Shown: positions 1,282 through 20,290 of the stretch, one piece after another
How positions within the stretch are numbered: position 1 is the first letter of the stretch
How the letters are laid out: each line of letters begins with the position of its first letter
Notes under the pieces: generated by a model
Seen by the model: only the letters and a program-made list of their open reading frames with translations
Told to the model about the DNA's origin: nothing
Databases searched by the model: none
NCBI GenBank assembly: GCA_027460535.1
Contig: JAPZAR010000024.1
Coordinates: 60,001-92,000 of the forward strand
Source: Candidatus Methanoperedens sp.
GTDB lineage: Archaea; Halobacteriota; Methanosarcinia; Methanosarcinales; Methanoperedenaceae
DNA: 32,000 bases
Reading direction: 5' to 3'
Translations under genes and position numbers: made by a program

Positions 1282-3306
1282 ATGGTGGTTCATACCTATT
1301 TGTTCTTTGGACTTGTAATCTTTTATCTGATCGGGGCTGTACTATCTGTTATATTAAACAGGAAGGACCGACTGGTCACGTATGCTTCATTCTTGAGCGC
1401 AGCCCTGGCATCGCTGCTGGGAATAGGTTTTTCATTCTTCGTTCTCTTCGGTGAGACCTTTACTTTCGCTTTGCCTGGCCCGACTTTCTTGAATTTCAGC
1501 GTTTTTGTGGATAAGCTGTCTGCATTTTTCATACTCGTAATTTCGATCGTGGCTTTTGCAGTCTCAATATACTCTCTGGGGTACGTTCGCGAATATTTCG
1601 GGAGAAAGAATATCGGCTACCTTTGTTTCCTGTATAACATATTCATCCTTTCAATGATCCTGGTGGTCTCCTCCAGCAACACACTGATGTTCCTGATCGT
1701 CTGGGAATTGATGTCACTTGTTTCGTATTTCCTGGTGATATACGAGCATGAAGAAGCCGAGATAAGAAAAGCAGGCTTCATCTATATCGTGATGACGCAT
1801 ATCGGGACGGGATTCATCCTCATATCGCTTCTTATCCTGGCAAGCTCAAGCGGCAGTCTCGATTTCGGGACATTCCGTGGCCTGACAATGTCACCTTTTC
1901 TCAAGGATATAGCATTCCTGTTCGCCCTGATAGGCTTCGGGACAAAGGCGGGGATCGTCCCGCTGCATATATGGCTGCCTTATGCCCATCCTGCCGCGCC
2001 AAGCAATGTATCTGCGCTCATGTCCGGTGTGATGATCAAAACAGCGATCTATATGCTCATCCGGGTTTGTTTTGATTTCCTGGGCGCCAGTGTTCTGTGG
2101 TGGGGAGTGCTGCTTTTAATTATTGCATCCGCATCCGCGCTTCTTGGCGTGATGTACGCCCTGATGGAGCACGATATGAAACGCCTGCTAGCATATCACA
2201 GCGTCGAGAATATTGGAATCATTCTCATCGGGTTGGGCGTATCCATGATATTCATGTCCACCGGACACCCGGAGCTTGCCGCGTTCGGGTTGATCGCTGG
2301 TCTCTATCATACCATAAACCATGCAGTGTTCAAGTCCCTGCTTTTCATGGGAGCAGGTTCGATTATTTTTTCAACGCATACAAAGAACATCGAGGAAATG
2401 GGCGGACTTCTGAAAAAGATGCCCTGGACCGGCTTGTTTTTCCTCATAGGCTCAATATCCATTTCTGCGCTTCCGCCTTTTAACGGTTTTGTGAGCGAAT
2501 GGCTCACCTTCCATACACAGCTCCTGAGCATCAATCTCTCGGAGAATATAATAAAGATACTTGTGCTTTCAAGCGGAGCTGCGCTGGCTCTCACCGGCGC
2601 TCTTGCAGCTGCGTGCTTTGTCAAGGCTTTCGGGATAAGCTTCCTGGCCCTCCCGCGCAGCGATCATGCACGGCACGCAAAGGAGGTTCCGGGAAGCATG
2701 CTTTTCGGGATGGGGATTCTTTCTCTTCTCTGCATTGCACTCGGGGTCTTAAGTTTTTACTTCCTCCCGATCCTCGATTCGATAGCCTCGCCGCTTACGG
2801 GCACAAGTATAATCTCAAAGGTTACATTTGACCTCTCGCTCGCCGCATTGAGCCCCCAGGCAGGAAGCGTTTCTACCTTGTGGTTATTCCTCCTGCTTTT
2901 CGTTCTGGTTCCCATTCCCTTTCTACTGGCACTCGCCCTGGGTGGCAGGACACATGCAAGAACATATGAGACCTGGGGATGCGGGCAGCCAGCTACAACA
3001 GGCAGGAACGAGTACACAGCCACCGGGTTCTCAAAGCCGATACGCATGTGGTTCAGCAGCATCTATCGCTCGCACAGGGAGATACAGACAAGCTACGCCG
3101 GCTCACCCTTCTTCAAGGAGAGATTTGTCTTCGATACGCAGATAGAGCCAATTTTCGAGAAATATCTCTATGGACCTGTCGTATGGATTGCACTGTTGGT
3201 ATCCAGAATATTGAGGGTCATTCAGACAGGGAGCATACACCTGTACCTGCTCTACATCCTGATCACACTGGTTATCGCACTGATATACGTGGGAAGTGGA
3301 GGGTAA
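1282..3306 (+). CDS. HyfB-like antiporter-type membrane subunit (NuoL/HyfB family), copy 1
   Basis: 674-aa polytopic protein with the antiporter-like signature GFGTKAGIVPLHIWLPYAHPAAPSNVSALMSGVMIK. It has a HyfB-size C-terminal extension (ETWGCGQP...NEYTATGFSKPI). It is the first gene of a hyf-ordered cluster. Confidence 0.85.
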   Translation: MVVHTYLFFGLVIFYLIGAVLSVILNRKDRLVTYASFLSAALASLLGIGFSFFVLFGETFTFALPGPTFLNFSVFVDKLSAFFILVISIVAFAVSIYSLGYVREYFGRKNIGYLCFLYNIFILSMILVVSSSNTLMFLIVWELMSLVSYFLVIYEHEEAEIRKAGFIYIVMTHIGTGFILISLLILASSSGSLDFGTFRGLTMSPFLKDIAFLFALIGFGTKAGIVPLHIWLPYAHPAAPSNVSALMSGVMIKTAIYMLIRVCFDFLGASVLWWGVLLLIIASASALLGVMYALMEHDMKRLLAYHSVENIGIILIGLGVSMIFMSTGHPELAAFGLIAGLYHTINHAVFKSLLFMGAGSIIFSTHTKNIEEMGGLLKKMPWTGLFFLIGSISISALPPFNGFVSEWLTFHTQLLSINLSENIIKILVLSSGAALALTGALAAACFVKAFGISFLALPRSDHARHAKEVPGSMLFGMGILSLLCIALGVLSFYFLPILDSIASPLTGTSIISKVTFDLSLAALSPQAGSVSTLWLFLLLFVLVPIPFLLALALGGRTHARTYETWGCGQPATTGRNEYTATGFSKPIRMWFSSIYRSHREIQTSYAGSPFFKERFVFDTQIEPIFEKYLYGPVVWIALLVSRILRVIQTGSIHLYLLYILITLVIALIYVGSGG

Positions 3307-3330: not shown

Positions 3331-3442
3331 CAAAATCCTACATTAATAATCAATATCCACTTTCACATTTTTTCAGGTTAATCTTAAATACAAACACTAG
3401 AGTAATGGGAGGCTCTGTTATTCCTGAAGTAAAAAGCTGGTA
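3331..3442 (+). promoter_or_regulatory. Copy B of the duplicated leader, internal to the operon; TATA-like cttaaatacaaac at about 3383-3395
   Basis: Aligns by eye over about 110 nt with 1137-1243. GGTGG Shine-Dalgarno-like motif 6 nt upstream of the ATG at 3501. Confidence 0.45.
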
Positions 3443-3500: not shown

Positions 3501-5516
3501 ATGCTTGACAAATATTTATTTTTGTTACTCATCATCTTTTATTTGATCGGTGCAACATTATCGATCATATTCAATAGAAAAGACAGGCTTTCCTCTTATG
3601 CCTCTTTCTTGAGCGCAGCAATCTCATCCATGTTAGGGATTGTTTTCTCGTTTTCCGTTATTTTCGGCGACACTTTCAGCTTTTCCTTATCAGGTTCTTC
3701 ATTCCTGAACTTCGGATTCTCCGTGGACAGGCTTGCAGCATTTTTCATTCTTGCGATATCCATTGCAGTGTTCGCGGTTTCGATCTATTCGATCGGGTAC
3801 GTGCGAGAATACTTCGGGAAAAAGAATATCGGCTACCTGGGCTTCCTTTATAACATTTTTATTCTATCCATGATCCTTGTGGTCAGCGCGAATAATGCAG
3901 TCATGTTCCTGATAGTCTGGGAACTGATGTCCCTGGTATCCTATTTCCTGGTGATATACGAACATGAAAAACCGGAAACAAGGAAGGCGGGTTTTATCTA
4001 CATAGTGATGACGCATATCGGGACCGGATTCATACTCCTCTCATTCCTGATCCTTGCAAGTTCAAGCGGCAATTTCAGTTTCGAATCATTCATGGGCGCT
4101 GGTTCAAGAATGACCCCGCTCCTGAAAGACCTCGTGTTCCTTTTCGCTCTCATAGGCTTTGGCGCCAAGGCGGGTATCGTGCCACTTCATATCTGGCTTC
4201 CCTATGCCCACCCTGCCGCGCCAAGCAATGTATCAGCCCTCATGTCCGGCGTGATGATCAAGACCGCGATCTATATGTTCATCCGTGTTTTCTTTGATTT
4301 CCTGGGCGCGGGCGTTATGTGGTGGGGATTCCTGGTGCTGTCCGTTGGCGCACTCTCGGCGATACTTGGTATAATGTATGCGGTCGTTGAACCCGATATA
4401 AAGCGGATGCTTGCCTATAGCAGCATAGAGAATATGGGGATCATCCTTCTTGGAATTGGCGCATCGATGATCTTTTTTGAAGAGGGAAATGCCGCCCTGG
4501 CGGCAATCGCGGCTATCGCAGCGCTGTATCACCTGTTAAACCACGCAGTATTCAAGGGACTATTATTCATGGGCGCAGGCTCGGTCATATTTTCAACCCA
4601 TACAAGGAATATCGAGAAACTGGGTGGCCTGATCAAGAAGATGCCATTGATGGCATTCCTTTTCCTGATAGGAGTGCTTTCCATCTCCGCCCTGCCGCCA
4701 TTTTCTGGTTTTGTGAGCGAATGGCTCACCCTTCAGTCGCTGCTTATGAGTTTCAGTTCAGGCGATTCCCTTGTAAGGATAGTACTTCCTGTCAGCGCCG
4801 CAGTCCTTGCCCTCACCGGCGCCCTTGCAGCTTTCTGTTTCCTGAAGGCTTTCGGAATAGGGTTCCTGGCGCTACCGCGAAGTGAGAACGCTGAACATGC
4901 GAAGGAGGCAAATATGCCCATGCTGCTCGGAATGGGAATTTTCGCAATATTATCCGTGCTTCTGGGTATCCTGCCTTTTTATGCCCTTCCCGTTCTTGAC
5001 AGGATCACACAGACCTTTACAGGGGCGAGCGCTTCCTTTTCATCAGGCATTTTCGGCTCGATCGTCATGCCCGCAGGGCAGATATCAGTCTCAACCCCTG
5101 CGATAGCGCTCCTGATGCTTGCGGTGCTCCCGCTCCCGTTAATAATTATGTTGATGTATAATAGCAGGAAGAATGAAACCTGGGGATGCGGGCAGCCCGT
5201 TTCCACGGCAAGGAACGAGTATACAGCCACTGCCTTTTCAAAACCCATACAGATGTGGTTCAGGAACATCTACCGCCCGGTAAGGGAATTGCGGACGATC
5301 TACTCGGTCTCGCCCTTTTTCAAAGAATCCTTCAAGTTCGATTCGCAGATAGAACAGATATTTGAACGTTATCTCTATACCCCGGTGGTAGACGGAGTTC
5401 TTGCAAAATCGAGAGTTGTAAAGATGATCCAGACAGGCAGCATCCATGCCTACCTCACCTATATCTTCGGGACCCTGGTAATTCTTATGATGTTTATAAT
5501 TTTAGGAGGCAACTAA
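3501..5516 (+). CDS. HyfB-like antiporter-type membrane subunit, copy 2 (tandem paralogue of 1282-3306)
   Basis: 671 aa, colinear with copy 1 over the full length (roughly three quarters identical by eye). Long stretches are also near-identical at nucleotide level, e.g. around ...ccctgccgcgccaagcaatgtatc...catgtccgg.gtgatgatcaa.ac.gcgatctatatg.tcatccg.gtt. Confidence 0.85.
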   Translation: MLDKYLFLLLIIFYLIGATLSIIFNRKDRLSSYASFLSAAISSMLGIVFSFSVIFGDTFSFSLSGSSFLNFGFSVDRLAAFFILAISIAVFAVSIYSIGYVREYFGKKNIGYLGFLYNIFILSMILVVSANNAVMFLIVWELMSLVSYFLVIYEHEKPETRKAGFIYIVMTHIGTGFILLSFLILASSSGNFSFESFMGAGSRMTPLLKDLVFLFALIGFGAKAGIVPLHIWLPYAHPAAPSNVSALMSGVMIKTAIYMFIRVFFDFLGAGVMWWGFLVLSVGALSAILGIMYAVVEPDIKRMLAYSSIENMGIILLGIGASMIFFEEGNAALAAIAAIAALYHLLNHAVFKGLLFMGAGSVIFSTHTRNIEKLGGLIKKMPLMAFLFLIGVLSISALPPFSGFVSEWLTLQSLLMSFSSGDSLVRIVLPVSAAVLALTGALAAFCFLKAFGIGFLALPRSENAEHAKEANMPMLLGMGIFAILSVLLGILPFYALPVLDRITQTFTGASASFSSGIFGSIVMPAGQISVSTPAIALLMLAVLPLPLIIMLMYNSRKNETWGCGQPVSTARNEYTATAFSKPIQMWFRNIYRPVRELRTIYSVSPFFKESFKFDSQIEQIFERYLYTPVVDGVLAKSRVVKMIQTGSIHAYLTYIFGTLVILMMFIILGGN

Positions 5517-6463
5517 TGAACCCCATTGCCATTGCGATCTTCCAGATAATCGTAATAATCGTACTTGCGCCGCTCCTGAGCGGCATAATGAAAAAAGTAA
5601 AGGCCTTCTTCCAGATACGCAAAGGACCGAGCATTTTCCAGCCTTACTACGATATCGCCAAGCTTTTGAGAAAAGATTCTGTGGTATCTGAGAATGCATC
5701 CTGGATTTTCCATGCTGCGCCAGTCATTTCATTTGTCGCAATACTCACAGCAGGCATGCTTATCCCGATTTACATCTCGGATATGCCTTTTGGCTTTGCG
5801 GGGGATCTCATAGCTGTTGTCTATCTTCTCGCCCTTGCAAGATTCTTTACCGCACTCGCATCCCTTGATACCGGAAGTTCCTTTGGCGGGATGGGAGGGA
5901 GCAGGGAGATGTTCGTGGCATCCATGGTCGAGCCTGCCATGATGCTTTCGATATTCGCCATAGCCCTCAATGTGGGCTCAACGAACCTGAGCTATATTTC
6001 CCAGACAGTTTCATCCATGGGGCTCGCCGCAATCTCTCCTTACCACCTGCTTGCGTTCGTGGCGCTTTTCATAATTGCGATTGCCGAGACGGGAAGGATA
6101 CCTGTAGATAACCCGGCCACGCATCTTGAACTCACGATGATCCATGAAGCCATGATACTTGAATATTCAGGAAAGCAGCTCGCTCTGGTGGAACTCAGTG
6201 CCATGATGAAACAATTGCTGGTATTTTCGCTGCTTGCAAACATCTTTTTCCCCTGGGGCATAGCATCAGGGGCAACCGTGGGAGGTATTGGCGTGGCGCT
6301 TATAGCCTTTGTAATAAAGATCGGGATTCTGGGGACAGCCATGGCAATGGTCGAGACTTCAACCGCAAAATGGAGGATGTTCAGGCTGCCGGATCTCCTC
6401 TCCGTCTCTCTCATGCTTTCATTCCTATCACTTGTTTCATTTATTATCGTAAAAGGAGGATAG
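5516..6463 (+). CDS. HyfC/HycD/NuoH-like membrane subunit
   Basis: 315 aa polytopic protein with motif ETGRIPVDNPATHLELTMIHEAMILEYSGKQLAL. Its start overlaps the stop of the preceding gene (TAATG). Confidence 0.85.
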   Translation: MNPIAIAIFQIIVIIVLAPLLSGIMKKVKAFFQIRKGPSIFQPYYDIAKLLRKDSVVSENASWIFHAAPVISFVAILTAGMLIPIYISDMPFGFAGDLIAVVYLLALARFFTALASLDTGSSFGGMGGSREMFVASMVEPAMMLSIFAIALNVGSTNLSYISQTVSSMGLAAISPYHLLAFVALFIIAIAETGRIPVDNPATHLELTMIHEAMILEYSGKQLALVELSAMMKQLLVFSLLANIFFPWGIASGATVGGIGVALIAFVIKIGILGTAMAMVETSTAKWRMFRLPDLLSVSLMLSFLSLVSFIIVKGG

Positions 6464-6466: not shown

Positions 6467-7126
6467 ATGTCAGAGATCGTTTTCGGGTCAAATGTTATGC
6501 AGCTGCTTATCTCACTTATACTTGTCTCGACCTTTATGATCCTGGGTTCCACGCGCCTTTATTCATGCGTGAGAGCCTTCGGGATCCAGTCATTCCTGCT
6601 TGCATGCGTGGCCGGGATAGTGGCCTATTCAACTGGAAAAAATGACATCTATATTGTTTCCGCCCTGACATTGATAATAAAAGCGCTGGTGATCCCTTAT
6701 ATTTTCATCTACATAATCCGCGAGATCAAAGTGAAAAGGGAAGTCCAGTTGTACGTGAATATTTCCCCTTCGCTTATAATAGGCGGCATCCTGGTGGTCA
6801 TTTCATACTATCTTATACGCTCCATAAACCTTATCACAGAGCTGTCAAGTTTTGCCCTTTCTGCTTCCATGTCACTGGTATCAATCGGTCTTTTCATTAT
6901 GATCAGCCGCAAGAAAGCCATAATGCAGATGCTGGGCATCCTGATAATGGAAAACGGGCTTTTTCTTGGAGCGATATCTCTGACATACGGCATGCCTCTG
7001 CTTGTCGAACTGGGGATATTCTTCGATGTACTGATAGGCGCACTGATCATGGGTATCCTGATATTCAGGATAAATAAGACATTCGAGAGCATCGATACTG
7101 ATATGCTTAAAACTCTGATAGGTTGA
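6467..7126 (+). CDS. HyfE-like small membrane subunit (NuoK-related)
   Basis: 219 aa. ...ILIMENGLFLGAISL...LLVELGIFFDVLIGALIMGIL...LKTLIG matches the HyfE pattern (LMENG, LVE.GI..D, C-terminal L..L.G). Confidence 0.75.
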   Translation: MSEIVFGSNVMQLLISLILVSTFMILGSTRLYSCVRAFGIQSFLLACVAGIVAYSTGKNDIYIVSALTLIIKALVIPYIFIYIIREIKVKREVQLYVNISPSLIIGGILVVISYYLIRSINLITELSSFALSASMSLVSIGLFIMISRKKAIMQMLGILIMENGLFLGAISLTYGMPLLVELGIFFDVLIGALIMGILIFRINKTFESIDTDMLKTLIG

Positions 7127-7130: not shown

Positions 7131-8585
7131 ATGATTGAATACCTTCTTCTCGCCCCGGTTCTCACATGCATACTGTGCTTTTTCACAAGAACGCGAAAAC
7201 AGGTGGAGACCGTGAGCTTAACAGGCTCCATAGCCACGCTTATTCTTGGCCTGGTACTTGTGGCCCAGGTGTACAAGAACAATATAATAATATCGTGGAC
7301 AAATGCCCTGTTCGCAGACATGTTCAGCGCCTTCATTGTCCTTATTGTTTCTATCGTGGGTTTTGTGGCTTCGCTCTACTCTGTGGGCTACATGGGACAT
7401 GAACTGGAACACGGCACCATAGACTTCCGAAGACTGAGAATATACTACGGTCTTTTCCACGTATTCATGTTCACCATGCTGCTTGTGGGTGTGACGAACA
7501 ACCTTGGTCTCTGGATCGCCATAGAGATGACCACCCTCGTTTCTGCGCTCCTGATGATACTTTACTCGAAAAAATCCTCCATTGAAGCGGCATGGAAATA
7601 CATGATCATATGTACCGTAGGAATAACGTTCGCGCTTTTCGGAACCATACTCACCTACTTTGCTGCTGTCAAGATCCTGGGCGAGAGCGGAGATGCGCTC
7701 AACTGGACATCACTAGTCGCTGTCGCTGACCAGTTCGACCCGACGATCATGAAGCTTGCCTTTATTTTCATTCTCATAGGTTACGGCACAAAAGCAGGCC
7801 TTGCACCCATGCATACCTGGCTTCCCGATGCCCACAGTGAAGCTCCCACGCCTGTAAGCGCGCTTCTCTCAGGCGTGCTGCTTAACTGCGCCATGTACGG
7901 CATTATCAGGTTCTACACGATCGCCACGAAATCAACGGGTGCAGTTTTTACCAGCAATCTGCTGATCATATTCGGGCTCCTGTCGCTTGGCATCGCCGTG
8001 CCTTTCATACTCCTTCAGGAAGACTACAAGCGGCTCCTTGCATACTCAAGCGTGGAACATATGGGAATCATTGCGATCGGCATAGGCTTCGGAGGTGTTT
8101 TTGGAATCTTCGGGGCGATATTGCACATGTTCAACCATGCCATGACGAAATCCCTCATGTTCTTTGGCGCGGGGAATGTGCTGCTAAAACATGATACGAA
8201 AGAGATATTCAATGTGACCGGACTTGTAAAATCAATGCCATACACAGGCGCCATGTTCGTGATCGGGGGGCTTGCCATCACGGGCTCTCCGCCTTTTTCC
8301 ATATTCATAAGCGAATTTACCATACTTGCGGCAGGGTTCTCACAGGGGCACATAATTGCCGCAGTACTGTTCCTGCTTTTTATAATAATGATATTCGCAG
8401 GCTTTTTCAACAACGTGAGCAAAATGGCTTTCGGGACACCAAAACCCGGAATTGAAAAAGGTGAGGTGAGCAGATGGACCCTGGGCGCAATGGCTATATT
8501 GATTGTTTTCGTTGTCGTGCTCGGGGTTTACATCCCGCCTTCATTCTACGAGATGATAATGAAAGTCGTACAGATTGTGAGATGA
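7131..8585 (+). CDS. HyfF/NuoN/NuoM-like antiporter-type membrane subunit
   Basis: 484 aa with GYGTKAGLAPMHTWLPDAHSEAPTPVSALLSGVLLN and LAYSSVEHMG motifs. Confidence 0.85.
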   Translation: MIEYLLLAPVLTCILCFFTRTRKQVETVSLTGSIATLILGLVLVAQVYKNNIIISWTNALFADMFSAFIVLIVSIVGFVASLYSVGYMGHELEHGTIDFRRLRIYYGLFHVFMFTMLLVGVTNNLGLWIAIEMTTLVSALLMILYSKKSSIEAAWKYMIICTVGITFALFGTILTYFAAVKILGESGDALNWTSLVAVADQFDPTIMKLAFIFILIGYGTKAGLAPMHTWLPDAHSEAPTPVSALLSGVLLNCAMYGIIRFYTIATKSTGAVFTSNLLIIFGLLSLGIAVPFILLQEDYKRLLAYSSVEHMGIIAIGIGFGGVFGIFGAILHMFNHAMTKSLMFFGAGNVLLKHDTKEIFNVTGLVKSMPYTGAMFVIGGLAITGSPPFSIFISEFTILAAGFSQGHIIAAVLFLLFIIMIFAGFFNNVSKMAFGTPKPGIEKGEVSRWTLGAMAILIVFVVVLGVYIPPSFYEMIMKVVQIVR

Positions 8586-8589: not shown

Positions 8590-10182
8590 ATGAATGAGTT
8601 AATAGATGGGATAAGAAAAGATTTCGGCAGTGATATCCTGGATGAAAAAGTTTCAGGCAACGAGACCTATTTCACAGTAAAAGAAAATGCGGCCGTGAGA
8701 ATCTGCGATCATTTGTACCACCACCTTGGCGCTGCCCTTGTTTCCATCTTCGCCACGGACCGGAGAACAAAGGAAGGATGCTTCAAAATATATTATGTGT
8801 TCTCTTTGATCAACCCCTCTGGAAAGGATGACCCCAAGACGGCAGACGCATTCTTAATAATACAGATAAATATCGATGAGAAGGCGCCGCATTTCCACTC
8901 TATTACACCCAGGATTCCTGCAGCCAACTGGTATGAGCGGGAGATCCAGGATATGTTCGGTTTGACACCCGTAGGCCATCCCGACCCGAGGAGGCTCGTC
9001 AATTTTGAGGACTGGCCTCCTAAATTATATCCACTGCGGAAGGATTTTGACATAAGGACAAAACCTGAGCGCGTTACAGGAGAATATACGTACCGCAGGG
9101 TGGAAGGTGAAGGGGTATATGAGATCCCGGTGGGACCAGTGCATGCAGGAGTGATTGAACCTGGGCATTTCAGGTTCAGTGTGGCCGGAGAGCCCGTACT
9201 CAATCTCGAGATAAGGCATTTCTATACACACAAAGGCGTGGAAAAACTCTTTGAGAATATATCCCTCGACAAAGCTGTATTCCTTGCCGAGCGCATATCT
9301 GGCGATAACTCCGTTGCGCATGCTGTGGCTTTCTGTCAGGCCGTGGAAAAGATCGCTGGTGTAGATATTCCTCCCCGCGCAAAGTACATCCGGGTAATCC
9401 TAATGGAACTTGAGCGGTTGTATAATCACATCGGGGATATGGCAGGGATCGCGACCGATGTGGCGTATGCTTTCGGGGCAGCGCATGCCAACCTGCTCAA
9501 GGAAGAGATATTACAATTGAATGAAATAGTTACAGGGAGCAGGCTTCTGCGGGGTATGAATGCCATAGGCGGCGTTCGGCGCGATATCGGTGACAAAAAA
9601 GAGATAATTTCAAAAAAACTCTCATCCTTCAGGAACGATTTCAGGGATTTGATGGAGCTTCTCTTTGGCTCGCCTTCTGTTGCGGACAGGATAGAAACTA
9701 CGGGACGCCTTTACAATGATATAGCAAGAGAGCTGCACGTAGTGGGCCCTGTGGCGCGTGCCTCCGGGATCGACAGGGACACGAGGCGCGACCATCCTTA
9801 TGCTGCATATGCCGAATTGGATTTCAAGGTGCCTGTCCTCAAGGCAGGCGATGTCAATGCCAGGACGAGAATACGCTCTGATGAGGTGTATGAATCAATA
9901 AGCATGATCGAGACGGCGCTTTCCCGTCTCCCTGATGGTGATATTAAATCAAAGGTAAAAGAAATCCCTGACGGGTATGCCCTGGGATATGCAGAGGCGC
10001 CAAGGGGAGAAACACTCTACTGGGTAATGATCGAGAATAACCGAATAGAGAGATGCAAGGTGCGAGACCCGTCGTTTTGCAACTGGCTCGCCATAGAGTA
10101 TGCGGTTCTGGACAACATCGTTCCTGACTTTCCGATAATCAATAAAAGCTTAAGTTTATCGTATTCTGGCAATGATATGTAG
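8590..10182 (+). CDS. HycE/HyfG-like 'large subunit' (NuoC-like N-domain fused to NuoD/[NiFe]-large-subunit fold) lacking all four NiFe cysteine ligands
   Basis: 530 aa. The NuoC-type motif is PRIPAANWYEREIQDMFGLTPVGHPDPRRL and the NuoD/large-subunit core is GPVHAGVIEPGHFRF. At the L1 site ERISGDNSVAH replaces ER.CG.C...H. The C-terminus SLSYSGNDM replaces DPC..C..R. Confidence 0.85.
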   Translation: MNELIDGIRKDFGSDILDEKVSGNETYFTVKENAAVRICDHLYHHLGAALVSIFATDRRTKEGCFKIYYVFSLINPSGKDDPKTADAFLIIQINIDEKAPHFHSITPRIPAANWYEREIQDMFGLTPVGHPDPRRLVNFEDWPPKLYPLRKDFDIRTKPERVTGEYTYRRVEGEGVYEIPVGPVHAGVIEPGHFRFSVAGEPVLNLEIRHFYTHKGVEKLFENISLDKAVFLAERISGDNSVAHAVAFCQAVEKIAGVDIPPRAKYIRVILMELERLYNHIGDMAGIATDVAYAFGAAHANLLKEEILQLNEIVTGSRLLRGMNAIGGVRRDIGDKKEIISKKLSSFRNDFRDLMELLFGSPSVADRIETTGRLYNDIARELHVVGPVARASGIDRDTRRDHPYAAYAELDFKVPVLKAGDVNARTRIRSDEVYESISMIETALSRLPDGDIKSKVKEIPDGYALGYAEAPRGETLYWVMIENNRIERCKVRDPSFCNWLAIEYAVLDNIVPDFPIINKSLSLSYSGNDM

Positions 10183-10190: not shown

Positions 10191-10529
10191 ATGTTCGAGA
10201 TCCTGAAACAGACCTTAAAAACAGGCACCGTAACTAGGAATTATCCCAAGAAACCTGACATAGCGCCTGTGGGGTTCCGCGGAAAACCGCAGCTTCTCTC
10301 TGACAAATGCACCTACTGCGGAGAATGCGCAACGGTATGCCCTCCGGGTGTTATCTGGCTTGAAGAAGAAAATGGTGGAAAAACGCTCATACTATCATAT
10401 TGCGGGTGCATATTCTGCGGAAGATGCGAAGAGGTCTGCCCTTACGGGGCCATCAGGCTCACGCAGGAATATGAGCTGGCGTCAAAGACCAAAGATGATC
10501 TTCTAACAAGTATATCGAGGAAGTTATGA
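10191..10529 (+). CDS. 2x[4Fe-4S] ferredoxin-type subunit (HyfH/HycF/NuoI-like, short form)
   Basis: 112 aa with two complete CxxCxxCxxxCP motifs: CTYCGECATVCP and CIFCGRCEEVCP. Confidence 0.85.
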   Translation: MFEILKQTLKTGTVTRNYPKKPDIAPVGFRGKPQLLSDKCTYCGECATVCPPGVIWLEEENGGKTLILSYCGCIFCGRCEEVCPYGAIRLTQEYELASKTKDDLLTSISRKL

Positions 10530-11014
10530 CGGTCGAAGCTGAAATCGGGATTATGGGTCAGCACCTCAACGAGAGGATAAAAAAAATATTTGGGAGATCG
10601 CTGCATATACGCGAGGTGGATGCGGGTTCGTGCAATGCCTGTGAAGTGGAGGTGAACGCTTTATCCAATCCCATATACGACATCGAGCGCTTCGGTCTCC
10701 ATATCGTGGCATCCCCCCGCCATGCAGATATGCTGCTCGTGACCGGGTCCGTGACGCGGAACATGGAACTTGCGCTCCTGAAGACCTATAATGCCACTCC
10801 TGAACCGAAGCTCGTGGCTGCCATGGGATCGTGTGCCTGCAACGGTGGTATTTTCGGCGATACTTACGCTAGCGGAGGCGGCGTGGACAGATTTATTCCC
10901 GTGGATGTGTACATTCCCGGATGCCCGCCCAGGCCACAGGCCGTGATATTCGGGCTCATGGTGGCTCTTGACAAGCTTGATCAGAAGATTAGGAAAATGG
11001 AGGTAAAGGCATGA
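10526..11014 (+). CDS. HyfI/HycG/NuoB-like small subunit with intact [4Fe-4S] ligands
   Basis: 162 aa with DAGSCNACEVE ... GSCACNGGIF ... IPGCPPRP. ATGA overlap with the preceding gene. Confidence 0.85.
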   Translation: MTVEAEIGIMGQHLNERIKKIFGRSLHIREVDAGSCNACEVEVNALSNPIYDIERFGLHIVASPRHADMLLVTGSVTRNMELALLKTYNATPEPKLVAAMGSCACNGGIFGDTYASGGGVDRFIPVDVYIPGCPPRPQAVIFGLMVALDKLDQKIRKMEVKA

Positions 11015-11445
11015 CAAAGTACGAGATACTGGTAGCCACGGACGGCTCTGAATATGGAAAGAAAGCGGAAATAGCAGCGATGAAGATAACTAGGTCATAT
11101 AATATCCGCATTGCTGCCATCTATGTCGCGGTGGGCAGCAAGGATTCGGAGCGCGAGGAGCGCGTGGCAAAAGGCGAGGAAGTTCTGAACCGCGTGGTGG
11201 AGACCGGCGCTTCCATGGGCGTTGAGGTGAACAAGCTGCTGGTCGGGGTGAGCATGCAGCGGATGCCGCAGCAGGGAGCGATGGCTGACACGATAGCGCG
11301 TGCCATTCTGGATGCTGCGGAGAAGTACAAGGCGCATACCATCGTGCTTGGAGGCAAGGGAGAGAGCGAGATCAATCCCGAGCTCGGGAGCGTGGCGCTC
11401 GCCGTGGTGAAGAAGGCAAGGTGCTCGGTGCTGGTGGCGAGATAG
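11011..11445 (+). CDS. Universal stress protein (UspA family), translationally coupled to the small subunit gene
   Basis: 144 aa. Starts MTKYEILVATDGSEYGKKA and has the ATP-type motif VLGGKGESEINPELGSVA. Its ATG overlaps the stop of 10526-11014 (ATGA). Confidence 0.8.
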   Translation: MTKYEILVATDGSEYGKKAEIAAMKITRSYNIRIAAIYVAVGSKDSEREERVAKGEEVLNRVVETGASMGVEVNKLLVGVSMQRMPQQGAMADTIARAILDAAEKYKAHTIVLGGKGESEINPELGSVALAVVKKARCSVLVAR

Positions 11446-11475: not shown

Positions 11476-11847
11476 GTGCATTTATATCTATACAAGGATT
11501 TTATATTTAAAGTAAGCATCAAAGAAGTAGGTGATTTTCTGGTTGATGTAATTGATGTGTTTGAAAAATCTATTAGATTAACTGAAAAAAGATTAGAACA
11601 TATTTTAAAACGACCAGAAATGTCCAGGCAACTTGAAAGAATCAAAGAAACATTAGCAAACCCGGATCTTATAAAAGAAAGCAACCAAGACAGCTCCGTA
11701 TGGCTTTTTTATCGCTTTTATAACATAACGCCTGTAACGGAAAAGTATTTGCTCGTTGCGGTAAGATTACTCGATGGCAATGGATTCATAATAACAGCAT
11801 TCTATACAGACAGAATTAAGAAAGGTACAACAATATGGGAAAAGTAA
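11476..11847 (+). CDS. Putative small toxin (DUF4258 / BECR-fold-like) upstream partner of a DUF2283 protein; true start uncertain
   Basis: Conserved-looking core is IRLTEKRLEHILKRPEM...IKETLANPDLIKES..DSSVWLFYRFY...KYLLVAVRLLDGNGFIITAFYTDRIKKG. TATA-like boxes (tttatatc, ttttatatttaaa) lie inside the first 40 nt of the ORF, so an in-frame GTG at 11557 is an alternative start. Family assignment is by memory of the motif only. Confidence 0.45.
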   Translation: MHLYLYKDFIFKVSIKEVGDFLVDVIDVFEKSIRLTEKRLEHILKRPEMSRQLERIKETLANPDLIKESNQDSSVWLFYRFYNITPVTEKYLLVAVRLLDGNGFIITAFYTDRIKKGTTIWEK

Positions 11848-12068
11848 ATATCTGGTTTGACGAGGAAGGAGATTTTCTTGAGGTGACCACAGTTCCATCT
11901 AAGAAAGGATTCTTTAAAGATGTGGGAAACGATATTTGGGAAAGAGTGGATAGCACAGGAAATGTCCTGGGATTTGCGATTTTAAATTTTAAAAAAAGGT
12001 TCGAAGAATTAAAAGAAGAACATATCGAATTACCAGTTGAGATTTCATTCGCTCAGGCTGAGGGGTGA
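11835..12068 (+). CDS. DUF2283-family small protein (putative antitoxin partner)
   Basis: 77 aa. MGKVNIWFDEEGDFLEVT...DIWERVDSTGNVLGFAILNF is the typical DUF2283 pattern. It overlaps the upstream ORF by 13 nt. Confidence 0.65.
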   Translation: MGKVNIWFDEEGDFLEVTTVPSKKGFFKDVGNDIWERVDSTGNVLGFAILNFKKRFEELKEEHIELPVEISFAQAEG

Positions 12069-12315: not shown

Positions 12316-15300
12316 CTATACCAGTAGACTTTTCAGAGCTTCAAGGTCTTGAAGTATGTTGGCACCATTAATCCGAAGTGCATTCGCATCCTCAGTCGAA
12401 ATATCTTTACCCTGCTGCGCCTTTACCTGATTCGTAAATGCCTGAATTATATTTTTTGCTGGGATTATTGATTGCTTCGCATTAGAATCATTCCCGGCTT
12501 CAAGCTCACTTATTATCTTATCTAGCTTCGCAATAGCGCTATTAAGCTTATCATTCAGACCATCCCTAACATCTTGTGGAATATTCATCTGAGCAATTGT
12601 ATTTTTCAGCCATACAAGTTCAAGTTTTGTGTACTTAGCCAAAGCAAGTTTATCGTTTGCTATTAATGGAGGCATTCTGATTGGGGCTACTGATTGCATT
12701 TCCGTTCCTGAGAGGCTCATACTAGCTGTTTGGACTTGGCCTGGAAGAATCGAGCCTTTGTAAGTCTTAGATGAGATGATTTCTCCTGAAGTTGATAGTA
12801 GTTCTAAATCTGCTGTATATGTGCCAGTGGCGGTTCCGAATAGTTGAACTGTATAATCTCCCGGAAGAGCTCCTGGAATTGTCAGAACCTGCGGCTCTGT
12901 CTGCGAACCAGTATAAGATGCGCCAAGTATTTCAATTGAAGATGAGCCGGACATTGGGTCGAAGCCCACTTTGAAACCTGAATCATCTATAACTAATGGG
13001 TTTGCAGGCGAGTAAATTGTGATTTTTACAGTAGTCGGTGGGTATGCTTGGTTGAGAATAAAATCTTCTCCTATGCCATTATATATAAGCGGTTTTTGAT
13101 GAAAATGTGTAGGCGATGGTAAGAGTTCATGCCCCATGAGATCAACAATAGCGACGTTTCTCTTAGCAAATTTAAATCCTTCTTCCACGCTTATTCTCCC
13201 ATTATTATCTAAGTCTGGATTTCCGAACTTTTTGGAAATGCCACCTCTTAAACCTAAGTCAAATAAACCTGTGAATACTCCGCCTGTTCCTGTGAATACG
13301 TTGGATAATCCATCTTCCGTTGTATAGAATTTCAAAAGACCCCACTCTGCGCAGTCTTCATCTGTGATGCCTGTGTTTTCGGTGCAACCAGTAGTAACTA
13401 TCCTTCCTGCAGGATAATTGCCGTTAGAATCTTTTGAGGCTAAGTCTGAGTATTGGCCATTATCTACTATGAAACCACCAGACCAACTGGCATCTAAAAT
13501 TACCACCAGCTTTTTAGATTTGATTTGGTTTAATACCGCTGAGAATTCATTTTCATACAATCGATTGCTATGGGCTCTTAGATATTCTGGTTCTCCATTT
13601 ACTGGCCCACTCCCGTGACCTCCGAAATAAAATGTGACAACATCGTTCTCTTTTGCATTATCAGCTAACCATTGCATTTCTTTTAATATGTCTTCAGGCT
13701 CAATGTTGTCTTTTGAATTTTTTACCTCATCTTTCAAAAGATGAACATTTTCTTTAGGGAATCCATAGTATTTAGTGAGCGTTGAATAGATTCTCTTGGC
13801 ATTGTCAATTTGAAAATCTAAATTATTCCAATGTGTACCCGAATTTTTATCCCCCTCATCATCCGTATACTCGTTTATTCCAATAACCACAGCCCATTGA
13901 GTAAAAGCTTTAATTTGAAGTGGCGAAGCTGATACGCTATTTCCTTGAGAGTCTGTAACGGTAAGCGTAGCGTCATACACGCCTGTGGATTTATATTTAT
14001 GAGTTGGATTCTGTAGCGTGCTCGCTTCTCCATCACCAAAGTTCCATGAAAATGAATATGGCGATACTCCACTGCTTGCAGAACCTGTGAAAAATACTTC
14101 TAGAGGAACGTTCCCTTCAGTAGGATTGGCTGACGCAGTAGCTTCTAATGGAATTGGCTCCACCGTCACACTCGCGCTCCCCACCACCCCTCCGCTCGCC
14201 GCCTTCACCGTTGTCGTGCCCGCCTTCAGCGCCTTGAACACCCCGCCCGCATCTGTTGTGCCCACGCTCTCATCGCTGACGCTCCAAATCACGCTCACAG
14301 GGTTGCCGTTCTGGTCTGTGGCTGTGAAGGTCTGGGTCTTGCCAGCGACCACGGTTGCGGAGGAGGGGGATACTGTGATGGATGTGATGGTTGATGGTCC
14401 GTATTTTTCATACTCTGCCTTAACTTCATCAGCACTTAAAGCGCTGTTGTAAATGCGGACTTCATCAATGACACCTTTAAATTTATTGTTTTGTAGACTG
14501 GAATCAGCGTTTCCAACATATAGATTCGATACCCTTATATTAGGAATAATTGGAATATCCATTGCAATCTCTTCTCCATTTAAATATAATCTTCTATATG
14601 TTCCATCATAAGTCGCGCTTATATAGTTCCACTCATTTGCTGTAAGTACTGGAAAAGGTGTTAATAATTGAGTTATACCAACGACAAAACCTAACCTTGG
14701 ACTTGAATGATATTGATATACCGCATACTGCCCATCATTCATCCCATTAGAGTCCCAAATTTGCCCAATCAGAACGAAATATCCATCTGTATCTTGATTA
14801 GGTGGTTTAGTCCAAAAACTGATAGTAATGGGGTTACGACCTTGCGGAACTCCATTAGCTGATATTTTTTTAACGTAATCATCCACGCCATCAAACCTCA
14901 AAGCCTGCCCGCTTACTCCCTGAACGAAGGTAGCATTACCATAAATCGTCCCATCATTCCCATTTCCGCTTGAATCCTTTGCATCTCCATCGAAATGATA
15001 TTCAGCTACAAGTCCATTACCTTGTTGCTGAAGCTCAATCGCATAAATATCAAAATTTCCATTGCGATTTGACTCAAATATTACCCGCTTGCCATCAGGA
15101 GAAAAGTAAGGATTAACATCATCTCCAGAACTTGTAGTTAACTGCTCTTTACCGCTTCCATCTGGATTCATCCTCCAAATATCAATATTGCCAGAATCTT
15201 TAGAGAAATATACAATTTTTGAGCCATCTGGTGACCAGACCTCGCTCTGCCAGGATTGCGTTTGCTCGGCAATATCCCCATTCGCTATTTTTGTTAAACC

Positions 15301-15606
15301 ACTTCCATCAGCTTTTATAACATACACTCCTCGGCTACCAAAGAGCTGTGCGGGGTCAGAGGATAATGCGAAAGCAATTTTTGAGGAGTCGGGAGACCAT
15401 GCTTGAAAATCCCCATATGTATTTGGAGCACTTGCAATTGTTGTTTTCCCTGATCCATCTGGATTCATTAATGCCAAACTTAATGGCGCATTATAATTTG
15501 AACCATATTCATATGATATTTTTGTTCCTCCAGGCGACCAAGAAGCATATAAGTCCATATTATGATCTGTTGCCATTGGTGTTTGTGAAGTCCCGTCTGA
15601 GTTCAT
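12316..15606 (-). CDS. Large secreted/surface multidomain protein, main part: PD40 (TolB-like) repeats, LamG (Laminin_G_3), Big_2, PKD, clan-CD (legumain/caspase-like) domain, EF-hand-like loop, beta-sandwich, helical tail
   Basis: 1096 aa. PD40 repeats: WSPDGSKIVYFS...IDIWRMNPDGSG. LamG: aa ~197-400 (LVAEYHFDGDAKDSSGNGNDG...VIDEVRIYNSALSADEV). Big_2: aa ~403-484. PKD: aa ~486-567 (WNFGDGE...HKYKSTGVYDATLTVTD). Peptidase-like: aa ~570-850 (VVIGINEY...FYFGGHGSG...VVILDASWSGG). EF-hand-like: DLDNNGRISVEE. There is no signal peptide of its own, and it is in frame with 15622-16080 across a single TAG. Confidence 0.8.
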   Translation of the reverse strand: MNSDGTSQTPMATDHNMDLYASWSPGGTKISYEYGSNYNAPLSLALMNPDGSGKTTIASAPNTYGDFQAWSPDSSKIAFALSSDPAQLFGSRGVYVIKADGSGLTKIANGDIAEQTQSWQSEVWSPDGSKIVYFSKDSGNIDIWRMNPDGSGKEQLTTSSGDDVNPYFSPDGKRVIFESNRNGNFDIYAIELQQQGNGLVAEYHFDGDAKDSSGNGNDGTIYGNATFVQGVSGQALRFDGVDDYVKKISANGVPQGRNPITISFWTKPPNQDTDGYFVLIGQIWDSNGMNDGQYAVYQYHSSPRLGFVVGITQLLTPFPVLTANEWNYISATYDGTYRRLYLNGEEIAMDIPIIPNIRVSNLYVGNADSSLQNNKFKGVIDEVRIYNSALSADEVKAEYEKYGPSTITSITVSPSSATVVAGKTQTFTATDQNGNPVSVIWSVSDESVGTTDAGGVFKALKAGTTTVKAASGGVVGSASVTVEPIPLEATASANPTEGNVPLEVFFTGSASSGVSPYSFSWNFGDGEASTLQNPTHKYKSTGVYDATLTVTDSQGNSVSASPLQIKAFTQWAVVIGINEYTDDEGDKNSGTHWNNLDFQIDNAKRIYSTLTKYYGFPKENVHLLKDEVKNSKDNIEPEDILKEMQWLADNAKENDVVTFYFGGHGSGPVNGEPEYLRAHSNRLYENEFSAVLNQIKSKKLVVILDASWSGGFIVDNGQYSDLASKDSNGNYPAGRIVTTGCTENTGITDEDCAEWGLLKFYTTEDGLSNVFTGTGGVFTGLFDLGLRGGISKKFGNPDLDNNGRISVEEGFKFAKRNVAIVDLMGHELLPSPTHFHQKPLIYNGIGEDFILNQAYPPTTVKITIYSPANPLVIDDSGFKVGFDPMSGSSSIEILGASYTGSQTEPQVLTIPGALPGDYTVQLFGTATGTYTADLELLSTSGEIISSKTYKGSILPGQVQTASMSLSGTEMQSVAPIRMPPLIANDKLALAKYTKLELVWLKNTIAQMNIPQDVRDGLNDKLNSAIAKLDKIISELEAGNDSNAKQSIIPAKNIIQAFTNQVKAQQGKDISTEDANALRINGANILQDLEALKSLLV

Positions 15607-15621: not shown

Positions 15622-16080
15622 CTATCCACCAAAACCATATTGATAGGTTATCTTTTTTCCATCTGGAGAGTATACCGGTTCATATTCATCTGCTGCCGTA
15701 TTAGTTAATTGAGATACAACAGAGCCATCTGCAGAGACTTTCCATATATTATAGGGATTTGTTGTATAAAATGCAATCTCATTTCCATTAGGGGACCAGG
15801 CCGGCTTTTCTGCCGTTCCAAGGTTTGTTAGTTTAGTCTGTCCACTACCATTTGCATTCATTACCCAAATTTCATCAGTGCCACTTCTATCAGAAACAAA
15901 AGCTATTTTTTTCCCGTCTGGTGACCATACTCCATTATTGTCATTAGCAGGATTAGTTGTCAATTGAACTTCTGTATAAGCCGCATACACATTGCTTGCC
16001 AGCAATATAATTGACAATATAGTTATTCCGAATACTCTTCCGAGTAGGGCATGCCCTCTAGATATTTTATTTGAATCCAT
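15622..16080 (-). CDS. N-terminal part of the same surface protein: signal peptide/anchor plus PD40 repeats, ending at an in-frame TAG
   Basis: ATG at 16080 is preceded by [38 protein letters not shown] is signal-peptide-like. It is followed by [30 protein letters not shown] repeats. The ORF-track start at 16116 is a TTG and less likely. Confidence 0.75.
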
Positions 16081-16725
16081 TTTTAACCACCTGTCCTTTA
16101 TGCATGACGACCGCAACGATGAATCTCAAGCAGTCCCACTGATGGAGGGGGTGAAACTTGAAGTTATTTAATCCTTTCGAAATTGTTCATGTGAATTAAT
16201 TATGATTGTTAAAAAAATTGAGTTCTACGGTATACATGATCCAAGCAAAACTTATCTAATATTGTGCATATTAGCCAGGGGACGAATAGGTATGAATGCA
16301 GATTCACTGGCCATCAATCTGCGTTCATCTGCGTTTATCCGCGGTTCGATTATTATGAAATATGACTATACTTTTGCAGGGACATCGAGTGAAAAGATTG
16401 CTGAATAAGTTTGCAAGAGGCGCAGAAAATTAATTGAATTATAAACTATGAGCTATGGATTATGCTTTTTAATCATCTTGATATCAGAATCAACAAGCGT
16501 TTTTAAAATATGCAGCTCTGCCACAACACTGAGGCTTCTCAGGATTGTCATGGTTCTGGCCACAACCATCGGGACGACTCCTCGTGAATGGATTTCCAGT
16601 AAGAATGTGCCTTGAAGCAGGCTTTCCATTCAATATAGTCGTCCCATTTTTCAGAATCTTCATGCTCTGATACTTTCAACTGTTCTTCAAGATCATCAAA
16701 AGCAAGGCCATTCAGGGTTTCGCCT

Positions 16726-18210
16726 CTATTCCTTCCCGAAGAAGCTCCTCATCATCGGGTGCATCTCCATCATCTGCTGGCTGGCGATGTCCTCATACAG
16801 CCTGTACATGATGCTTACAGTGAGCAACAAGCCCGTTCCGCCCGCGCCTCCCAGAGTTCCGAGAAGGCTTGCGATGAGCGTGAGCAATCCAATGAACGCA
16901 CCGCCAATCACCGTCACCTTGGGGATATACCGCTGCATCACGCGTTCAAGCGTTCCGCTGCTCCTGCGATATCCCGGTATCTGCATGCCTGATTTCTGTA
17001 TCTTCTCGGCCACGCTCTTTGCTCCCATGCCCGTGGTTTCGATCCAGAACAGTGCAAATACAATGCCGCCTACGATGAGGAGAGTTGCGTCCGTGAATAC
17101 GTGAAGCACGATCTGCCAGCCCGGCGGCGCTGCCACACCAAGGCTGGTGAACTTTGACGAGACAAGCGAAGGTATCCAGTCATTGGGGCTGCTGATAGGG
17201 GAGAGGTAATACATCAGGCCGCTCACAGGGGTCGCCTGTTTGTATAGACCTAATATCGTAATACCACGGCTTGAAAGAATAAGCCCTATCATCTGGATAT
17301 TTGCCTGGAGCGCCCTGACAAGTATCATGGGCAGAACGCTGGCATAGATGAGCTTGACTGGGAACCTGCCCCGAGCGCCTCTCACTGCGGCATGAGCTAG
17401 CGGTATTTCGATTCGCGTACTTTCCACATACACGACCATGAGGTATATGAGAACTGTACTGAAAAGGGCCAGTATTCCTCCTTTAACGAGCAAAAAGAGC
17501 ATCCCGTCCCCCGTAAGGAGATAATCCAGTCCGATATTCGATGATGGGCTCGCTATATATATCCATTTCGGGATAAGCCCTATAGGGAAACCCGTCTCGT
17601 CCGCTTTCCAATTAAATATTCCTGTAACGATCTGCTGCGAAACACCTGCAATAATAAAAAGCCCTACGCCTGATCCTATACCCCATTTGGAAACAATCTC
17701 ATCCATGTATAAGATCAATATGCCTCCAATGCATATCTGGATAAACAACAATAAAGTGATCCAACTGACATTTACCCCGAGCTGTGCGGCCAGCCCCGCA
17801 TCCGGACGCATGTAACCTCCCAGGATCTGCGGGAGGGCCTCCAGAGCTACCATTACAAAGACAAGAAGCTTCTGCAACCCCTGGAAGATAGCCTGCTGAT
17901 GCGGATCGCTAAGATCCATCTTGATGACATTCGCCCCTACAAGTAACTGCAGAATTATTGATGCTGTCACAATCGGTCCTATTCCCAGGACCATCAGCGA
18001 ACCCGATGCGCCTGCAAAGAATGCACGGTAAAGCTCAAAAAGATCTATGGAGCTTTTATCAAGTCCGAACAGGGGGATGTTCGCAAGAGCGAAATAAAGG
18101 ACAAGAATTCCCAGCGTCCATCCCAGTTTTTTCTTAAAATGTACATGGCCTTCGGGGCGCGAAACTGCAGGAAGGCGGTTCAGCAGTGGGGCAAAACTTT
18201 CAAAAGCCAT
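16726..18210 (-). CDS. secY: Preprotein translocase subunit SecY
   Basis: 494-aa polytopic protein at the canonical position after L15 in the archaeal spc-type cluster (…LFELYRAFFAGASGSLMVLGIGPIVTASIILQLL…). Confidence 0.95.
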   Translation of the reverse strand: MAFESFAPLLNRLPAVSRPEGHVHFKKKLGWTLGILVLYFALANIPLFGLDKSSIDLFELYRAFFAGASGSLMVLGIGPIVTASIILQLLVGANVIKMDLSDPHQQAIFQGLQKLLVFVMVALEALPQILGGYMRPDAGLAAQLGVNVSWITLLLFIQICIGGILILYMDEIVSKWGIGSGVGLFIIAGVSQQIVTGIFNWKADETGFPIGLIPKWIYIASPSSNIGLDYLLTGDGMLFLLVKGGILALFSTVLIYLMVVYVESTRIEIPLAHAAVRGARGRFPVKLIYASVLPMILVRALQANIQMIGLILSSRGITILGLYKQATPVSGLMYYLSPISSPNDWIPSLVSSKFTSLGVAAPPGWQIVLHVFTDATLLIVGGIVFALFWIETTGMGAKSVAEKIQKSGMQIPGYRRSSGTLERVMQRYIPKVTVIGGAFIGLLTLIASLLGTLGGAGGTGLLLTVSIMYRLYEDIASQQMMEMHPMMRSFFGKE

Positions 18211-18215
18211 ATTTT

Positions 18216-18671: not shown

Positions 18672-18676
18672 AATAG

Positions 18677-19762: not shown

Positions 19763-19766
19763 TTTT

Positions 19767-20285: not shown

Positions 20286-20290
20286 AAAAT

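Follow-up and report, generated by a model that had tools for sequence, protein, structure and literature searches.

The complexes termed Ehr, for energy-converting hydrogenase-related, are recognised as non-hydrogenases, and ion translocation has been proposed for them (PMC6349859, PMC6147122, PMC10432482, PMC10284858). As recounted in papers that cite the original work (PMC6147122, PMC6349859, PMC10432482, PMC7304191, PMC10284858, PMC7894505), Coppi 2005 was the first to note them, in Geobacter sulfurreducens (GSU0739-45, EhrL/EhrS), and Marreiros et al. 2013 gave the class its definition. The label has been applied to complexes of Methanomassiliicoccales (strain MALP), ammonia-oxidising archaea, candidate phyla radiation (CPR) bacteria, and Elusimicrobia (PMC10432482, PMC6147122, PMC7304191). 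In Methanoperedens, Arshad et al. 2015 annotated such an operon as 'Ech hydrogenase lacking EchD' (PMC4683180), McGlynn 2017 reported the 'Ech' homologue of Methanoperedens BLZ1 to be without the two CxxC motifs (PMC5371075), and the 'Ech' label persists in PMC9012536 and in the supplement of PMC13079737. Here we analysed this operon in a stretch of 32,000 nucleotides from Candidatus Methanoperedens sp. (assembly GCA_027460535.1, contig JAPZAR010000024.1, positions 60,001 to 92,000; hereafter the window), with a focus on its hydrogenase-like large-subunit gene, L. The loss of the NiFe-binding cysteines is already known, both as the mark of a described class and from Methanoperedens itself. The present analysis adds that the complex I quinone ligands are absent, that the iron-sulfur (Fe-S) cysteines are kept here and lost in distant relatives, that the ligand positions alone differ consistently from the nearest cysteine-bearing relatives, and that the operon is linked to a universal stress protein (Usp) gene.

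Analysis of L indicated that it almost certainly encodes the large subunit of an Ehr-type membrane complex of a Methanoperedens-like (ANME-2d) archaeon, derived from a Hyf/group-4f-like [NiFe] hydrogenase. The gene and its diagnostic sites are as follows.

8590..10182, forward strand: L, a fused NuoC/NuoD-type, HycE-like large subunit of 530 aa (open reading frame, Pfam, HMMER, AlphaFold2)
9157..9159, forward strand: E190 in VIEPGHF, opposite the Glu of HycE (sdEpghf) and of MbhL (leEpekf)
9289..9321, forward strand: the former L1 motif ERISGDNSVAH, with E234 at nt 9289 (translation and alignment)
10153..10182, forward strand: the former L2 motif SLSYSGNDM, followed by the stop codon (translation and alignment)

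L carries the Pfam domains Complex1_30kDa (NuoC, residues 29-157), Complex1_49kDa (NuoD), and the N-terminal part of NiFeSe_Hases (residues 216-281); the NuoC and NuoD domains lie in one open reading frame, and L is therefore a fused large subunit like E. coli HycE/HyfG. Its best structural match is E. coli HycE (PDB 7z0s_E, E=1.4e-108 over residues 23-529), which is also the closest PDB chain at 36% identity. The HMMER alignment places 'aerisgdnsvah' opposite 'sdrvCgiCgfah' at L1 and 'slslsysgnd' opposite 'sldpCysCtd' at L2, and Pyrococcus furiosus MbhL (6cfw_L, E=5.7e-52) gives an identical L1 register. Relative to HycE, the four cysteine ligands are replaced by S237 (9298-9300), N240 (9307-9309), S524 (10159-10161), and G527 (10168-10170), just as the original prediction had claimed from the sequence. 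R235 and H244 are retained in L1 and D529 in L2, and D239 is conserved within the clade. The motif ERISGDNSVAH named in that prediction is correct, with its start misplaced at nt 9292: positions 9292-9324 read RISGDNSVAHA, and the motif begins one codon earlier. Translation of 10153-10182 bore out the predicted ending, SLSYSGNDM and stop, and alignments of relatives agreed with the claim that the surrounding fold motifs are well conserved. The stop codon lies three residues past G527, so that the predicted absence of a C-terminal extension for endopeptidase processing also held. The nearest cysteine-bearing relatives end in the same manner (...CYSCTDL/R; ...CYSCTDL in P0116), and the missing extension alone is thus not diagnostic. 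A wrong alignment register was ruled out: the registers against HycE, MbhL, and Nqo4 agree, and neighbouring Ech and Ehr operons in Methanomassiliicoccus luminyensis show the contrast within one genome.

L accordingly has neither the L1 (RxCGxCxxxH) nor the L2 (DPCxxCxxR/H) cysteine ligands of group 4 [NiFe] hydrogenases. Because all four metal-ligand cysteines are replaced, L would hold no canonical NiFe(CO)(CN)2 site and would neither produce nor use H2 by the canonical NiFe mechanism; judging from this ligand loss, the complex probably takes no part in H2 metabolism. Three features of the Ehr class are found here: a large subunit homologous to those of group 4 hydrogenases (7z0s_E, 6cfw_L, Pfam, and a template-modelling [TM] score of 0.95), the absence of both CxxC motifs, in orthologues as well, and NuoB-like, NuoH-like, and Mrp/antiporter-like subunits encoded alongside (Pfam, NCBIfam, and synteny). 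'Ech hydrogenase' is a misannotation of the Methanoperedens operon. A hydrogenase whose metal site is not bound by cysteine could in principle be built on the retained E190, R235, H244, and D529 and on the polar S237, D239, N240, and S524. However, position 240 varies freely in the clade (S, T, E, N, A, H), a poor fit to a conserved metal ligand, and to our knowledge no [NiFe] hydrogenase functions without its four cysteines. HydDB, whose M. nitroreducens entry lists two group 3b hydrogenases only, was built to exclude Ehr proteins on that ground (PMC5037454). Such cryptic hydrogenase activity is effectively excluded, and we regard it as hardly credible.

To assess selection on L, pairwise Nei-Gojobori estimates were calculated for 18 sequences, namely the window and 17 orthologues from Methanoperedenaceae and Methanolobus loci. 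The median ratio of nonsynonymous to synonymous substitution rates (dN/dS) is 0.066; between the window and individual orthologues it ranges from 0.04 to 0.10, with 0.104 and 0.070 for the two closest relatives, and synonymous sites have reached saturation (dS about 1-3). No internal stop or frameshift interrupts any of the 17 orthologues extracted. The replaced codons themselves show synonymous turnover: S237 is encoded by TCT, TCC, TCA, or TCG, S524 by four synonymous codons, and G527 by GGC or GGT, and the neighbouring D239 by GAT or GAC. L is under purifying selection and is not decaying, as the original prediction had judged and had proposed to check by dN/dS across orthologues. The AlphaFold2 model of L, built from a 69-sequence alignment, has a mean predicted local distance difference test score (pLDDT) of 94.1 and a predicted TM score (pTM) of 0.94. 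It superposes on HycE with a TM score of 0.95 and a root mean square deviation of 1.9 Å, and on E. coli NuoCD with a TM score of 0.89-0.90. The four lost catalytic ligands and a low expression level would fit an Ech/Hyf hydrogenase remnant on its way to becoming a pseudogene. Against this stand the dN/dS of about 0.07 and the silent changes in the replaced codons, the intact frames, an operon syntenic in 18 related loci, a motif conserved in archaea and bacteria down to about 40% identity, and the confident fold. Decay is effectively refuted by the selection, the intact orthologues, the synteny, and the motif conservation, and we consider it extremely improbable. In one metagenome-assembled genome (MAG; locus L031, 10001-11556), the large-subunit gene is split into three matches lying in different frames; assembly indels are a likelier cause than a real pseudogene, because all other orthologues are intact.

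Comparison with relatives revealed that the replaced ligands are a property of a broad group of proteins. The genomes that match most closely are Candidatus Methanoperedens and Methanoperedenaceae MAGs, with protein identities of 75-87%. The set of the 120 closest homologues (52-98% identity) includes M. luminyensis (54%), Methanolobus and Methanomethylovorans (about 66%), and an Acidobacteriota MAG; cysteine is absent from the aligned L1 positions in 119 of them, the sole exception being P0116, and from L2 in all cysteine-less ones whose C-terminus is present. Nearly all read ER[IV]SGD[NST]xxAH and, if the C-terminus is covered, [SGN]LSY[SA]GND, the latter followed by one last residue and the stop. 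A wider sample was drawn by an exhaustive search of clusters at 50% identity, which yielded 1247 proteins at E<=1e-30. The best 150 were examined and 132 of these cover the four ligand columns: 91 carry none of the cysteines, 29 all four, and 12 some. Within the 91 cysteine-less representatives, position 237 is Ser in 72 and Ala in 17, and G238 (84), D239 (68), S524 (83), G527 (83), D529 (90), and E190 (82) are conserved, with position 240 variable as described above. In species-representative genomes, the SGD/LSYSG clade was found in Thaumarchaeota, Elusimicrobia, Omnitrophota, CPR bacteria, and other Methanosarcinales. A second cysteine-less clade, reading ERF[SA][GA]T[ST]AFAH ... LSVAENDR, occurs in loci of Acidobacteria, Desulfobacteraceae, and Verrucomicrobiota, and bona fide cysteine-bearing enzymes occur in Selenomonadaceae and elsewhere.

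The closest cysteine-bearing relatives, P0116 (on a bacterial contig, locus L081) and P0121 (Planctomycetota), are 52-54% identical to L and share the same 7-gene architecture. When the D-type domain was compared between 67 cysteine-less and 20 cysteine-bearing sequences, only positions 237, 524, and 527 differed consistently. About 40 other positions do not vary in either group, among them H185, E218, and D529, and E190 and R235 are retained in most sequences. At the level of sequence, the protein looks like a Hyf/4f-type hydrogenase in which the metal ligands alone have been exchanged. In a neighbour-joining tree calculated without the ligand regions, 20 extension-less cysteine-bearing sequences form one block nested among the cysteine-less ones, a method too weak to decide between single and multiple cysteine loss. 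In M. luminyensis (locus L083, CAJE01000023.1, 2858-16348), an Ehr operon with SGDT ... LSYSGNDL lies beside a six-gene Ech operon with a Usp gene between them, and the Ech large subunit keeps both CxxC motifs (RVCGICSFHH ... DPCICCTDR). Since this archaeon keeps Ehr beside a true Ech, Ehr does not stand in for a lost hydrogenase. In the same locus, a CCG-domain/Fer4 (HdrD-like) gene and genes for rubrerythrin are located upstream.

L is encoded with the following partner genes.

1282..3306, forward strand: A1, an antiporter-like (HyfB/NuoL-type) membrane subunit of 674 aa (Pfam Proton_antipo_M, 6.4e-53)
3501..5516, forward strand: A2, a HyfB-like antiporter-like subunit of 671 aa (NCBIfam NF005086 'hydrogenase 4 subunit B', 720.8 bits against a cutoff of 667)
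5516..6463, forward strand: H, a NuoH/HycD-like membrane subunit of 315 aa (Pfam NADHdh, 2.1e-46)
6467..7126, forward strand: E, a HyfE-like small membrane subunit of 219 aa (NCBIfam NF008556 'hydrogenase 4 membrane subunit', 9.1e-28, below cutoff; Pfam Oxidored_q2, weak)
7131..8585, forward strand: F, a HyfF-like antiporter-like subunit of 484 aa (NF005044 'hydrogenase 4 subunit F', 4.9e-171, 570 against a cutoff of 610; Proton_antipo_M, 5.4e-55)
10191..10529, forward strand: I, a HycF/NuoI-like 2x[4Fe-4S] ferredoxin subunit of 112 aa (PDB 7z0s_F, 4.7e-25)
10526..11014, forward strand: S, a HycG/NuoB-like small subunit of 162 aa (PDB 7z0s_G, 7e-46)
11011..11445, forward strand: the Usp gene (Pfam Usp, 1.9e-13)

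The nine genes, A1-A2-H-E-F-L-I-S-Usp, are tightly packed on the forward strand, with the stop codon of A2 overlapping the start of H, and the order A(1/2)-H-E-F-L-I-S-Usp is kept in all 18 Methanoperedenaceae loci and in Methanolobus. A1 and A2 are tandem paralogues, 65% identical over 659 aa. The duplication includes about 100 nt of upstream non-coding DNA (~1145-1245 and 3340-3440, ~80% identical) with a TTAAATA TATA-like box inside, and each paralogue may therefore own a promoter. A1 is present in some Methanoperedens loci and absent from others, and L002 and L012 have a single copy of the HyfB-like gene. The membrane arm keeps the antiporter-like signatures intact, namely the Glu of transmembrane helix 5, GxKAGxxPxHxWLPxAH, and the Lys of helices 8 and 12; in A2, the motifs WELMSL, GAKAGxxPLHxWLPxAH, and SGVMIKTAIY are legible in the sequence.

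The electron-carrying subunits typical of group 4 hydrogenases, a proximal-cluster small subunit and a 2x[4Fe-4S] ferredoxin-like subunit, are both present. Subunit I has all eight ligand cysteines (CxxCxxCxxxCP twice), aligned with those of HycF, and C36, C39, C103, and C133 of subunit S are the proximal [4Fe-4S] ligands, aligned with those of HycG and MbhJ. All 12 Fe-S cysteines are kept in M. luminyensis and in every Methanoperedenaceae locus that covers the positions. Their retention despite saturated synonymous sites argues that the Fe-S clusters matter. With slightly less than even confidence, we propose from these sequence features that the complex of the Methanoperedens lineage is still an electron-transferring, ion-translocating machine whose acceptor is not H+. 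In this scheme, the two [4Fe-4S] clusters of the HycF-like subunit would receive electrons from a low-potential donor, most plausibly ferredoxin reduced by formylmethanofuran dehydrogenase and carbon monoxide dehydrogenase. From there the electrons would move on to the NuoB-like subunit with its proximal [4Fe-4S] cluster, and finally to a non-H+ acceptor bound where L, S, and the NuoH-like subunit meet, in the former NiFe pocket. That pocket would be lined by S237, D239, N240, and S524, with room at G527 and with E190, R235, H244, and D529 kept. The reaction would drive H+ or Na+ translocation through the NuoH-like subunit and through A2, F, and A1 (the paralogue of A2), which are antiporter-like. 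Menaquinone would be the leading candidate for the acceptor in Methanoperedens, although a doubtful one, as the quinone ligands of complex I are absent. Overall, the best explanation joins the Ehr identity to an ion-translocating oxidoreductase that is fed by ferredoxin and produces no H2, an account that we judge as evenly balanced between right and wrong.

Several observations weigh against this proposal. In 'Ca. M. BLZ2', 'echDE' reached only 2.3 transcripts per million (TPM) on CH4/NO3, 16.1 on CO/NO3 (about 7-fold higher than on CH4/NO3), and 6.6 on CO/CO2, compared with a TPM of 59,539 for mcrA on CH4/NO3 (PMC13079737 supplement 11), and the MPEBLZ operon showed 52-80 reads per kilobase per million (RPKM; PMC4683180). 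On CO/NO3 the BLZ2 operon was up about 7-9 fold, at a level still under 20 TPM. Stronger expression would be expected of a main catabolic ferredoxin oxidase, and the very low level argues that the complex is not the main route of ferredoxin recycling. Distant members of the clade have moreover lost the Fe-S ligands. The proximal-cluster ligands of S are all replaced in uncultured Methanosarcinales (DPDN in L023, L024, L030, and L062) and in CPR bacteria (TEGD in L026, L029, and L032), and the ferredoxin-like gene is absent from these loci, yet the SGD/LSYSG motif of the large subunit is kept. The core function of the family may thus not need electron transfer. An acceptor site is likewise not identifiable from complex I, for the equivalents of Tyr87 and His38 of T. 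thermophilus Nqo4 (2fug_4) are G238 and I189, so that both of the quinone-site residues that the original prediction had suggested looking for are absent from L. The equivalog scores of L are also far below cutoff for NuoD (NF004739, 230 against 360) and FpoD (205 against 600). Finally, the literature searched yielded no experimental characterisation, biochemical data, or solved structure of any Ehr complex.

The clade members that keep SGD/LSYSG without proximal-cluster ligands or a ferredoxin-like subunit point to a cation/proton antiporter that is redox-independent or only redox-gated. In such a complex, the Mrp-like arm would do the work, L and S (and I) would form a structural cap or regulatory module whose Fe-S clusters, if kept, do no more than sense redox state, and Usp would link the complex with stress or with ion homeostasis. 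The thaumarchaeal subunit I, which keeps only one of its two clusters, is consistent with this idea, as are the very low expression in catabolic growth, the lack of recognisable acceptor-binding residues in L, and the association with Usp. The Usp gene, the last of the cluster, has a 4-nt overlap with the stop codon of S. It is translationally coupled in Methanoperedenaceae and Methanolobus, lying directly downstream on the same strand in Methanolobus (L016) and in every Methanoperedenaceae locus long enough to show it, and it adjoins the Ehr operon on the opposite strand in M. luminyensis; it is absent beside the thaumarchaeal and bacterial homologues of the operon. However, the 12 Fe-S cysteines have been kept across orthologues at saturated synonymous divergence, and E190 and the second-sphere pocket residues are conserved. 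In addition, we know of no Mrp antiporter that requires a peripheral arm. An antiporter of this kind is a serious possibility, although we hold it to be rather unlikely. A related and somewhat less probable idea is that the SGD...LSYSG(N/T)D pocket is a conserved functional site in its own right, beyond a scar of the lost NiFe centre, in a branch of the complex I superfamily that is non-redox or optionally redox-gated. S/A237, G238, D239, S524, G527, and D529 are each conserved in 75-99% of the 91 cysteine-less representatives, and the persistence of the motif without Fe-S ligands suggests a role other than electron transfer, such as ion or proton gating or a small-ligand site that controls the Mrp-like arm.

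A complex-I-like ferredoxin:menaquinone oxidoreductase would instead connect ferredoxin directly with the menaquinone pool, with the pocket turned into a quinone site as in NuoD/FpoD. Methanoperedens has menaquinone-based respiration, is without Rnf, and needs a ferredoxin oxidase (PMC4683180); the operon has up to three antiporter-like subunits, as in complex I, and L matches the NuoCD fold. A complex I-type quinone site was nevertheless rejected on the missing Tyr and His ligands. The low NuoD and FpoD scores also speak against a quinone oxidoreductase, and L resembles HycE far more than any NuoD (E=1e-42 or weaker). The family furthermore occurs in CPR bacteria, which are generally held to lack quinones, and the expression is low. 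On balance, we regard a dedicated quinone oxidoreductase as unlikely, and the ferredoxin-fed oxidoreductase with a non-H+ acceptor remains our preferred reading. If the complex does oxidise ferredoxin, it would fill the ferredoxin-recycling gap of nitrate-dependent methane oxidation.

The practical value of the assignment lies in annotation hygiene. Several metabolic models of Methanoperedens and recent datasets still say "Ech hydrogenase", and in databases the protein goes by "Membrane-bound hydrogenase subunit alpha" or by "NADH-quinone oxidoreductase subunit C"; the Methanoperedens operon should not be taken as a sign of hydrogen cycling. Ehr complexes are widespread, being found in methanotrophic and methanogenic archaea, ammonia oxidisers, Nitrospira, CPR bacteria, and others, and stand evolutionarily between hydrogenases and complex I.

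The remainder of the window holds the following genes, and a tRNA scan found no tRNA gene in it.

83-1006, forward strand: a partial response-regulator receiver domain fused to a KaiC/DUF7125-type ATPase, directly upstream of the operon
11476-11847 and 11835-12068: overlapping small, toxin-antitoxin-like genes, a PBECR2 (Barnase/EndoU/RelE-like nuclease) protein and then a DUF2283 protein
12316-15606, reverse strand: a 1096-aa protein with PD40 beta-propeller repeats, LamG, Big_2, PKD, and caspase (Peptidase_C14) domains
15622-16116, reverse strand: a 164-aa PD40 protein adjoining the 1096-aa one, both probably secreted or at the surface
16726-31229, reverse strand: an archaeal ribosomal protein operon (L3, L4, L2, S3, S4e, L32e, L18, S5, L30, L15) with SecY at its end; the L32e gene (20739-21395) has an N-terminal helix-hairpin-helix domain

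The complex was also compared with known systems. With HycE/HyfG and group 4f-like enzymes, L shares the fused NuoC-NuoD architecture and the VIEPGHF and RGE motifs, and the gene order of the operon matches hyfB-C-E-F-G-H-I. It differs from them in lacking the CxxC motifs and the C-terminal extension for processing by HycI/HyfK. Around the operon in the window there is no formate dehydrogenase (FdhF) and no HycB/HyfA partner, as a formate hydrogenlyase would have. Mbx/Mbs sulfane reductase is a group-4-derived respiratory complex that no longer makes H2. Its type is marked by a 13-subunit, Mrp-linked architecture and a partial ligand loss in MbsL. In overall match, the P. furiosus enzyme (6u8y) is far more distant from L than HycE (6u8y_L, E=2.6e-33 against 1.4e-108); the window operon has 8-9 genes of Hyf type. 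NuoD and Fpo(Fqo)D have the fold of L in common and are likewise cysteine-less descendants of a hydrogenase large subunit; the CxxC motif of subunit S, in contrast, is of hydrogenase type and not the CC motif of complex I. The Methanoperedens 'Ech hydrogenase' (MPEBLZ_04043-04052 / ANME2D_02718-02724) is the same operon as that of the window: L shares 75% identity with its M. nitroreducens ANME2D orthologue (L012), and with the orthologues of other Methanoperedenaceae MAGs the figure reaches 87%. Compared with a six-subunit Ech, the operon is Hyf-like, with a fused EchD/E-type subunit and two or three antiporter-like subunits. With the Ehr complexes, it shares a group 4 large-subunit homologue devoid of the NiFe cysteines and accompanied by NuoB-, NuoH-, HyfE-, and antiporter-like subunits, and nothing essential differs. 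The SGD/LSYSG relatives fall in the same taxonomic groups as the published Ehr complexes, a match at the level of groups.

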